DNA from: a virus | UHGV virus genome: UHGV-0243142 | Length of the DNA: 26,786 nt | Direction: 5' to 3' (one strand) | In this document: positions 347 to 2,025 of the stretch, piece after piece | Numbering within the stretch: position 1 is the stretch's first letter | Layout of the letters: each line of letters starts with the position of its first letter | The notes under the pieces: model-generated | What the model was told of the DNA's origin: nothing | Databases searched by the model: none | Seen by the model: the letters and a program-made list of their open reading frames with translations, nothing else | Position numbers and translations under genes: made by a program

Positions 347-1033
347 ATGAGCCAGTTAATCGTGAATGGTGTAGTAACAATGTCCAGCCGTGATATTGCG
401 GATCTGGTTCAGAGTAAACACAGTGACGTGAAACGCTCGGCTGAGCGTCTTGTTGCTGCGGGAATTTTAACCGCGCCATTGGCGCAGTTCGATTTTGAGC
501 ATAACGGTAATGTGTACCAGGAGTATCGTTTTAACAAACGCGACTCTCTGGTGATTGTTGCCAGATTATCACCTGAATTTACCGCCGCGGTCGTCGATCG
601 CTGGCAGGAACTGGAAGAAGGACAGAGTGTCAGTGTTCCGCGCTCATTACCGGAAGCGCTTCGCCTGGCTGCTGATTTAGCCGAGCAGAAAGAGCAACTG
701 ACGATCCAGCTGGCAGCCGCGGCGCCAAAAGTGGAGTTTGTTGATCGTTATTGCTCTGCAAAAGGCTCCATGTCATTCCGGCAGGTATCCAAATTGCTTA
801 ACGCAAAAGAAACTGAGTTTCGTCTGTTCCTTATTGAACGCAATATCCTGTATCGCCTCGGCGGCACACTTACCCCCATGGCGCAGCACATTTCCGCGGG
901 AAGATTTGAAGTTAAGACGGGAACATCGAGCACATCCAATCACGCATTCAGCCAGACGCGTTTCACTGCCAAGGGAGTACGCTGGATTGGTGGTTTGTGG
1001 GCTGAACATATTGCAGGAGGGCAGGCGGCGTGA
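347..1033 (+). CDS. Phage antirepressor / regulatory protein (Rha-type N-terminus, KilAC-type C-terminus)
   Basis: ORF with GGAG 6 nt upstream of ATG 347. N-terminus MSQLIVNGVVTMSSRDIADLVQSKHSDVKRSAERL resembles phage Rha regulatory proteins. C-terminal half (VEFVDRYCSAKGSMSFRQVSKLL...) resembles the KilAC antirepressor domain. Sits in the nin-region position next to rusA. Confidence 0.65.
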   Translation: MSQLIVNGVVTMSSRDIADLVQSKHSDVKRSAERLVAAGILTAPLAQFDFEHNGNVYQEYRFNKRDSLVIVARLSPEFTAAVVDRWQELEEGQSVSVPRSLPEALRLAADLAEQKEQLTIQLAAAAPKVEFVDRYCSAKGSMSFRQVSKLLNAKETEFRLFLIERNILYRLGGTLTPMAQHISAGRFEVKTGTSSTSNHAFSQTRFTAKGVRWIGGLWAEHIAGGQAA

Positions 1034-2025
1034 GGGCTTTGTTAAATCCTGAAGTAGCCCATCGCATGGGGATTGTGTTGTTTCGTCCCGGCGCGGAACT
1101 GATGCACCTCTTCATGCGCGGTCGCGTCCTTCTCGAACCTGAACCAGAAGAAATGGCGTCATTCAGTACAGGGGCTGTTCCCGCAGCCATTCAGCCGCTG
1201 GCTGATGATCCGGTAATGCGGCAGGTCTTCGGGAATGAGCGGGTTATTCAGCGTGCCGGCGGGCTTCCTTCCCTTGAGCAGTGGCTGAGTTCGCGGTTTG
1301 AATGCCAGTGGCCCCATTCATCGTGGCACGACAAGAACTTCACAACAATGCGGCACGAGCCTGGAAGCATTCGCCTGTGCTGGCATTGCGATCACACTTT
1401 GTCCGGGCAGCATACAGAACAGCTTGCAGGTATAGCGGCCGGTAACCTGGTATCCTGGATTCTGGAAGTCATTCTTCGCGATTCTGGTTTTCCCGAGTCG
1501 CATGTACTTACGTTGCCGGAACTGTGCTGGTGGCTGGTCAGGAACGACCTAGCTGATGTTATACCGGAAAGCATCGCGCACAAGGGGTTACGGCTACCGG
1601 ATGAGAAGATCTGCTCTGTCATGAGGGAAAGCGACATTGTGCCTTCCGCGTCAGCAACCAGACTTGTGCAGGAGAAGGCGAAGAAGATCCTCACGCTCTC
1701 TGTTGATCCGGAGTCGCCAGAGTCTTTCATGCTCAGGCCAAAACGTCGCCGCTGGGTAAATGAGACGTACACCCGCTGGGTTAAAACACAACCCTGTGAG
1801 TGTTGCCGACGGCCAGCAGATGATCCGCACCATATCGTAGGGCACGGTATGGGGGGGACAGCAACAAAAGCCCATGACCTCTTCGTGATCCCTCTGTGCA
1901 GAGAGTGCCACGACGAGTTACACGCCGATGTGTCAGCATTCGAGCAGAAGCATGGTACGCAGCTTGAGCTGCTACTGCGTTTTATGGATCGGGCGCTGGC
2001 GATCGGCGTAATTGCGAAAGCTTAA
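1030..2025 (+). CDS. DUF968-like protein (E. coli YdfU-like) with C-terminal HNH-type motif
   Basis: GTG start overlaps the upstream stop (GTGA), with GGAGGG about 10 nt upstream. C-terminus CECCRRPADDPHHIVGHGMGG...LCRECHDELH has the Cys pair, His-His and Cys-x2-His arrangement of HNH nucleases. Overall length and rusA-to-Q position match YdfU of the Qin prophage (from memory). Start codon uncertain; ATG 1066 is an alternative. Confidence 0.6.
   Translation: MRALLNPEVAHRMGIVLFRPGAELMHLFMRGRVLLEPEPEEMASFSTGAVPAAIQPLADDPVMRQVFGNERVIQRAGGLPSLEQWLSSRFECQWPHSSWHDKNFTTMRHEPGSIRLCWHCDHTLSGQHTEQLAGIAAGNLVSWILEVILRDSGFPESHVLTLPELCWWLVRNDLADVIPESIAHKGLRLPDEKICSVMRESDIVPSASATRLVQEKAKKILTLSVDPESPESFMLRPKRRRWVNETYTRWVKTQPCECCRRPADDPHHIVGHGMGGTATKAHDLFVIPLCRECHDELHADVSAFEQKHGTQLELLLRFMDRALAIGVIAKA

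Follow-up and report, generated by a model that had tools for sequence, protein, structure and literature searches.

Two phage enzymes, the RecA-dependent HNH nuclease Ref of P1 (PMC4330346, PMC4713147) and Gp16 of phiNM1, an HNH nickase that binds RecA and whose zinc-finger mutants lose toxicity (PMC12817073, NAR 2026), are the closest characterised relatives of the protein considered here, the product of a DUF968 gene in the UHGV virus genome UHGV-0243142 (the window: the whole stretch of 26,786 nucleotides (nt) that was analysed). Jablonska et al. 2017 (PMC5714182) placed DUF968 together with DUF1364 in group 7 of the His-Me finger nucleases, naming YdfU and YbcO; they also noted the RusA, Q and antirepressor neighbours of these genes and proposed a recombination or repair nuclease role like that of NinG and the RecA-dependent nucleases. 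An HNH motif in DUF968 had been noted by Curtis et al. 2014 (PMC4118853), a nuclease function was predicted for YbcO by Kaur and Subramanian 2016 (PMC4999995), and the label "HNH endonuclease" already stands in GenBank and PHROG annotations. The HNH assignment of the window protein is thus correct but already published (2017) and adds nothing to the literature. What we add is modest, namely a conserved N-terminal zinc module, to which the clade-specific decay of the C-terminal module and the reassortment of the two halves join as small further points.

On balance, and by analogy with these systems, we favour the view that the window protein is a two-module, zinc-containing phage DNA endonuclease of the YdfU/PdcB (DUF968) family, probably an accessory enzyme that nicks or cleaves branched or RecA-bound DNA and is encoded by the last delayed-early gene.

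The gene and its ribosome-binding site are as follows:

1030..2025, + strand: YdfU/PdcB-family (DUF968) gene, from the open reading frame (ORF) call; 331 amino acids (aa) plus stop
1015..1020, + strand: Shine-Dalgarno sequence AGGAGG, 9 nt 5' of the GTG start, from reading of the sequence

The start codon, GTG at 1030, shares the GTGA of 1030-1033 with the stop of the preceding antirepressor gene ant, to which the DUF968 gene is translationally coupled. Pfam DUF968 (PF06147) matches aa 160-326 over model positions 2-171 of 171 (E=4.6e-78; 261.6 bits against a gathering cut-off of 27.8 bits), and PHROG 96, "HNH endonuclease", matches over the full length (E=2.6e-155); NCBIfam holds no model for the protein. 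The nearest homologues are Citrobacter DUF968 proteins of equal length and 95% identity, and the N-terminus MRALL... is common to the homologues. An earlier note, made from the sequence alone, had labelled the gene DUF968 and YdfU-like; the label is right, because, beyond the Pfam match, an alignment with E. coli K-12 YdfU extends from end to end of the protein at 49% identity (349 aligned positions, E=6e-127). By these comparisons, membership of the family is far beyond chance. Full-length conservation within the family reaches down to 25% identity and takes in P1 PdcB and Vibrio phage proteins as full-length members. The family occurs in E. coli K-12 (YdfU), Stx2-converting phages, the Nissle 1917 prophage and P1 (PdcB), and also in Klebsiella, Salmonella, Yersinia and Vibrio phages; it is very common, and the assignment of an activity to it would fill a gap in the biology of the lambdoid nin region. 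A ydfU allele and a Q-antiterminator allele (ybcQ) were among the accessory genes linked to haemolytic uraemic syndrome in a genome-wide association study of Shiga toxin-producing E. coli (PMC11950266); both are probably markers of certain Stx2 phage backbones and not causal.

Several database proteins (P0263, P0282, P0284, P0268, P0273, P0309 and P0266) carry the initial 115-250 aa of a YdfU-like protein linked to a tail-tip J, tail-fibre, capsid or Q domain. We rejected these as real domain fusions of the YdfU N-terminal part, since that part is joined to unrelated late genes, at points within DUF968; they are most likely large prophage deletions or misassembly chimeras.

The C-terminal part of the protein carries the features on which the nuclease assignment turns:

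1702..2022, + strand: C-terminal His-Me finger (HNH) module, aa 225-331, with the conserved basic lead-in RPKRRRW and invariant P237 and K238
1795..1923, + strand: HNH core, aa 256-298, from the sequence, conservation counts and BLASTP to phiNM1 Gp16 and YbcO

The motif quoted in the earlier note as a hallmark of HNH nucleases, CECCRRPADDPHHIVGHGMGG...LCRECHDELH, lies at aa 256-298 (nt 1795-1923), and all canonical residues are there. C256, C259, C290 and C293 are the predicted Zn ligands, H267-H268 (nt 1828-1833) close strand 1 of the core, D283 occupies the HNH "N" position, and H294 and H298 sit on the helix. Conservation was counted over 283 full-length family members: H268 (with H267), H294, H298 and D283 are conserved in about 260, and the complete catalytic set (H267, H268, D283, H294, H298), present in the window protein, is strictly kept in about 200. 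The pattern takes the form HH...CxxHH...H in 113 members and HH...CxxCH...H in 87, and the full set of HNH residues is conserved across the lambdoid clade.

An AlphaFold2 model, computed from a 43-sequence alignment spanning three clades (lambdoid Enterobacteriaceae; P1-like; Vibrio/Yersinia), has a mean predicted local distance difference test (pLDDT) score of 81.9 and contains a beta-beta-alpha unit at 265-299, made of strands 265-268 and 286-289 followed by a helix at 291-299. In this predicted model a beta-hairpin and the following alpha-helix superpose on solved His-Me nucleases, with the predicted catalytic His (H268) ending strand 1 and the putative metal ligands H294 and H298 on the helix; IscB, ScoMcrA, EcoKMcrA and the GVE2 HNH endonuclease are among the structural matches listed for the C-terminus. 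A zinc ribbon without the beta-beta-alpha-metal fold, an outcome that would count against the HNH claim, was not seen, since AlphaFold2 gives a beta-beta-alpha unit and the best fold matches are HNH proteins. At the level of sequence, BLASTP aligns the window protein with phiNM1 Gp16 (37% over 59 aa, E=2.4e-8) and YbcO (47% over 30 aa, E=4.7e-6), and marginally with Ref (E=0.067).

The remainder of the protein had been described as a domain of unknown function of roughly 250 aa. It is correct that no Pfam family matches the N-terminal part, but the part outside Pfam amounts to aa 1-159 and not to about 250 aa, because DUF968 (aa 160-326) contains the HNH core. Moreover, this N-terminal part is not featureless and includes a conserved zinc-type beta-beta-alpha module:

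1192..1599, + strand: N-terminal helical and beta-beta-alpha module, aa 55-190, conserved and outside any Pfam family
1303..1401, + strand: core of the N-terminal module, aa 92-124, with the predicted zinc site C92/H100/C117/C120

Positions 92, 100, 117 and 120 are all Cys or His in 281 of the 283 members (CHCC in 124, CCCH in 86 and CHCH in 71), and no other residue occurs there in any member aligned at all four positions, making this Cys/His site the most consistent feature of the whole family. Q93, W118, D121 and N139 (the last at nt 1444-1446) are near-invariant. Modelled alone, aa 55-200 reach a pLDDT of 88.4 and a predicted template modelling score (pTM) of 0.80, with strands at 104-109 and 112-117 and a helix at 118-124, again a beta-beta-alpha unit, in which C117 ends strand 2 and C120 lies in the first helical turn. 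The best fold matches of this module are HNH proteins and not NinB/Orf, for which there was no match, and its knuckle, ECQ-x6-[C/H], is spaced as in the ECQVRIPGVC of YbcO. These predicted features suggest that the N-terminal module is probably, though not provably, a second, degenerate His-Me-type module. Profile-profile comparisons of the N-terminal module with the C-terminal module and with YbcO fell short of significance (E about 0.1, probability below 1%), and on sequence grounds we therefore make no claim of a tandem duplication.

Position 109, which is topologically the catalytic-His site of the N-terminal module, is His in the clade of the window protein and Tyr, Arg or another residue elsewhere, and this variation between clades makes catalysis by the module unlikely to be general to the family. 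A stronger proposal would make the YdfU/PdcB proteins tandem His-Me-finger proteins whose functional core is the diverged N-terminal module, serving either as a second catalytic centre, which would give a two-headed nuclease capable of cleaving both strands, or as a structure-recognition element. Such an arrangement would explain why no clade has lost the N-terminal module, not even the P1 clade with its decayed HNH residues; we nevertheless hold it to be a doubtful proposition. That the front half is a conserved zinc module makes it worth mutating together with the HNH site.

The known systems fall into place around this two-module architecture. K-12 YdfU, of the Qin cryptic prophage (b1560), shares it and likewise lies directly 5' of a Q antiterminator, but has 349 aa with a longer inter-module linker, and the fourth zinc ligand of its C-terminal module is a His (CRKHH), as against Cys in the window protein (CRECH). 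P1 PdcB (gp107), homologous over its full length (25.5% identity, 345 aligned positions), retains the zinc site and motifs of the N-terminal module and the C-terminal CxxC...CxxC, and is encoded directly 5' of the late activator gene lpa; unlike the window protein, it belongs to a P1-like clade with degenerate catalytic residues, its gene follows the phd-doc addiction module and not a nin region, and it is non-essential (PMC10695390, PMC10067587). YbcO of DLP12 (DUF1364; PDB 3g27) is a single domain of 96 aa, as against two modules in 331 aa, and has AH in place of HH; the window protein is not a single domain of about 95 aa matching PF07102. Ref (PDB 3plw) has a basic, disordered N-terminus of 76 aa and no folded zinc module. 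The product of an early phage gene, phiNM1 Gp16 (HNHc_6) is the best sequence match among characterised proteins, its CxxC...CRE[H/C]H...H aligning residue for residue with that of the window protein, whereas its N-terminal domain is NinB/Orf-like and unrelated to the zinc beta-beta-alpha module. Lambda Rap/NinG, a branch-specific endonuclease of the same His-Me superfamily, is likewise encoded in the nin region shortly before Q. The window protein has no detectable sequence similarity to it and no match to Pfam NinG (PF05766), even at E up to 10 on the C-terminal module, so that the analogy is one of position; as such, Rap is a plausible functional analogue.

Variation among the clades bears on the role of each module. 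The P1-like clade (P1 pdcB, L001:4001-5044, and P0124-P0140) keeps both zinc sites and has lost the canonical catalytic histidines: CxxC...CxxC is retained in the C-terminal module, while H294 is mostly replaced by Q and H298 by A, E, V, R or S. A first alignment suggested that P1 PdcB also lacks the strand-1 His; this was rejected after a gap-free re-count, which shows "AH" in P1. The loss thus holds for the P1-like clade and not for P1 itself, because P1 alone has the residue and the other members carry R, Q, N or G. Conversely, the Vibrio clade (e.g. L002:3995-5002) retains HH...H...H but only one of the four C-terminal zinc cysteines. The P1-like clade thereby offers natural "catalytic-dead" variants, and the Vibrio clade "zinc-less" ones, for the design of experiments. 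Furthermore, in a comparison of P0103, P0016, P0019 and P0006, identity to the window protein was found to be discordant between the halves, being 51% in the N-terminal and 97% in the C-terminal half of P0103 and 92% and 65%, respectively, in P0006. This discordance indicates that reassortment among prophages has paired N- and C-terminal modules of different origin, joined near aa 225-250.

The genomic context of the gene comprises the following features:

1..333, + strand: rusA (Holliday-junction resolvase), 5' end cut by the window edge; Pfam RusA E=8.2e-14, PHROG 34
308..1033, + strand: ant, antirepressor (Rha N-terminal and KilAC/ANT C-terminal parts); Pfam ANT E=5.8e-24, Phage_pRha E=5.3e-7, PHROG 63
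2047..2736, + strand: Q antiterminator; Pfam Phage_antiter_Q E=2.3e-36
2829..2856, + strand: strong terminator-like hairpin, AAACCCGC...GCGGGTTT plus T-run, about 90 nt after Q
7473..9590: lambda-gpA-type large terminase, with its own GpA nuclease domain

We take rusA to be cut by the window edge because its frame is open from base 1. The mechanically called Q frame opens with the GTG at 2026 that follows the DUF968 stop without a gap; Q of the syntenic prophage in E. coli Nissle, however, begins 22 nt past the stop of its DUF968 gene, and on account of this synteny ATG 2047 is the likely true start. The hairpin at 2829-2856 is a candidate tR'-type target of Q antitermination, marking the end of the early operon and the start of the late one. 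Between rusA and the end of Q there is no terminator-like site of comparable strength, the other matches being weak stems of 5-7 pairs; a sigma-70 promoter scan of 1-4600 returned no promoter-like site, against 4.3 expected, and tRNA and Rfam scans of the window returned nothing.

The order rusA-ant-DUF968 gene-Q bears out the earlier placement of the gene beside rusA and an antirepressor and not beside the terminase, which begins at 7473. The same arrangement recurs in ydfU-ydfT of the K-12 Qin prophage and in RusA-Ant-DUF968-Q of the Nissle prophage; in the equivalent region of DLP12, ybcO adjoins rusA, and in P1, pdcB stands directly 5' of lpa, the late activator. At 79 related viral loci, from contigs that are close relatives only (69-96% identity) and hence informative on synteny and not on diversity, the gene 3' of the DUF968 gene encodes a Q antiterminator of one of several Pfam families (PF06530, PF03589, PF06323, DUF1133). 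The 5' neighbour varies (KilA-N, Ant, DnaB or RusA), a KilA-N or Ant antirepressor being the usual one on these contigs.

Taken together, these observations suggest how an accessory DUF968 endonuclease might work. The C-terminal module (aa ~250-310) would form a canonical beta-beta-alpha-metal active site, with a structural Zn held by four Cys; H268, ending strand 1, would act as general base, and the catalytic divalent metal would be held in place by the helix residues H294 and H298, probably joined by H267 and D283. Catalysis would be Mg/Mn-dependent in a zinc-stabilised fold. The zinc-bound beta-beta-alpha unit of the N-terminal module (aa ~88-150) would most likely serve in recognition of DNA or DNA structure, or in binding of a partner, and not in catalysis. 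By nicking or cleaving branched or RecA-bound DNA in the lytic phase, the enzyme would most likely aid phage recombination and replication alongside RusA, a role we propose because of the analogy with Ref, whose RecA-dependent activity is directed at D-loops, with Gp16 and YbcO and, by position, with lambda Rap/NinG. The DUF968 gene, the last of a delayed-early operon rusA-ant-ydfU-like-Q, would be expected to be accessory and not essential, as the non-essential nature of its P1 homologue pdcB suggests.

A number of points weigh against this proposal. We found no experimental study of the function of YdfU or PdcB, and no published nuclease assay of either, in the literature; it is by inference that we assign a metal-dependent nuclease activity, a substrate and a biological role. 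The role in recombination, in particular, draws on analogy and on a gene neighbourhood in highly mosaic genomes. Foldseek against the PDB returned nothing below E=0.1, though the best matches are HNH proteins, and sequence searches of the PDB gave YbcO at E=0.1 alone with phmmer and nothing with profiles. Pfam HNHc_6 (PF16784; the type of phiNM1 Gp16 and Listeria Orf-HNH) scores 22.4 bits on the full protein and 25.2 on the C-terminal module alone, below its cut-off of 26.6, so that the protein is related to that family and not formally a member of it; for RecA_dep_nuc (PF16786) the score is 14.3 bits (E=0.048), where the cut-off stands at 26.9. Finally, the P1-like clade lacks the canonical catalytic histidines yet retains the protein and its N-terminal module, and for this reason the core function of the family may not be HNH cleavage.

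Among the alternatives, the product could be a host-directed toxin or takeover nuclease that damages or condenses host DNA, possibly via RecA, and so favours lytic growth, with anti-defence action against host or satellite DNA as a variant. We consider this unlikely. Both of the closest characterised relatives lend it some weight, Ref being toxic and degrading RecA-bound DNA and Gp16 inhibiting host growth and interacting with RecA, and the position of the gene suggests early expression, before Q. Nevertheless, the N-terminal modules of these two proteins (basic and disordered in Ref, NinB-like in Gp16) differ from that of the window protein, the gene stays intact in cryptic prophages such as Qin, and the literature gives no toxicity data for YdfU or PdcB. 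Nor was there any PADLOC or defence-related match; for the anti-defence role, which the earlier note had entertained, we found no support, PADLOC reporting 0 families with models that cover defence and not anti-defence.

The decay of the catalytic residues in the P1-like clade, which keeps both zinc sites, would fit with a non-catalytic zinc-finger DNA- or RNA-binding accessory factor, for instance a regulator of late activation, in which the HNH fold is kept as a scaffold. The gene always lies directly 5' of the late activator (Q in lambdoid phages, Lpa in P1), and the universally invariant residues are mostly outside the catalytic set. Even so, we regard such a factor as improbable: strict conservation of the complete catalytic set in the window protein and about 200 of the 283 relatives speaks for selection on catalysis, the catalytic histidines persist in the Vibrio clade although its zinc site is gone, and adjacency to Q is expected for the last gene of any nin region.

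The mosaic flanks would be explained if the gene encoded a free-standing homing endonuclease, and so were a selfish HNH gene that spreads by cleaving alleles without a copy. Phages often carry HNH homing endonucleases, and both the varying neighbours (KilA-N, Ant, DnaB or RusA on the 5' side, several Q families on the 3' side) and the mosaicism between the N- and C-terminal halves of the gene would agree with one; such mosaicism is normal in lambdoid nin regions, however, and the stable syntenic slot across Enterobacteriaceae, Vibrio and P1-like elements, the full-length conservation down to 25% identity, and the absence from the Pfam scan of the usual DNA-binding modules of homing endonucleases render this very improbable.

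Last, although an HNH fold in a phage with a lambda-type terminase might recall a packaging HNH that assists the terminase in the manner of HK97 gp74, such a role, judged unlikely at the outset, is effectively excluded by the position of the gene, in the early operon directly 5' of Q and about 5.4 kb upstream of the terminase with Q, a DNA methyltransferase and the lysis cassette between, and by the terminase's own GpA nuclease domain; besides, P1 can do without the homologue but requires pacA and pacB. A scan of ORFs surrounding the terminase (4518-13381) gave no match to an HNH family.

Some further features of the window deserve mention. The DNA methyltransferase (N6_N4_Mtase; 3319-4371, + strand) between Q and the lysis cassette occupies a late-transcribed "moron" position, and the same gene is present in the Nissle prophage. 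Its Pfam domain spans aa 29-336 yet covers only about 215 model positions, which implies that about 100 aa are inserted into the methyltransferase fold. The lysis cassette (4518-6313, + strand) begins with two different tandem holin-family genes, Phage_holin_8 (4518-4904) and Phage_holin_3_7 (4891-5172), followed by a glycoside hydrolase 19 (chitinase-like) endolysin (5172-5789, + strand) and a DUF2514 protein (5786-6313, + strand) of the Pfam family of K-12 RzpQ. The head and packaging genes are lambda-like, with a gpA terminase and a lambda-family portal. A single ORF of 725 aa (11204-13381, + strand) combines CLP_protease and Phage_capsid_4 domains, those of a ClpP-type protease and a major capsid protein, and looks like a fused prohead protease and capsid gene.

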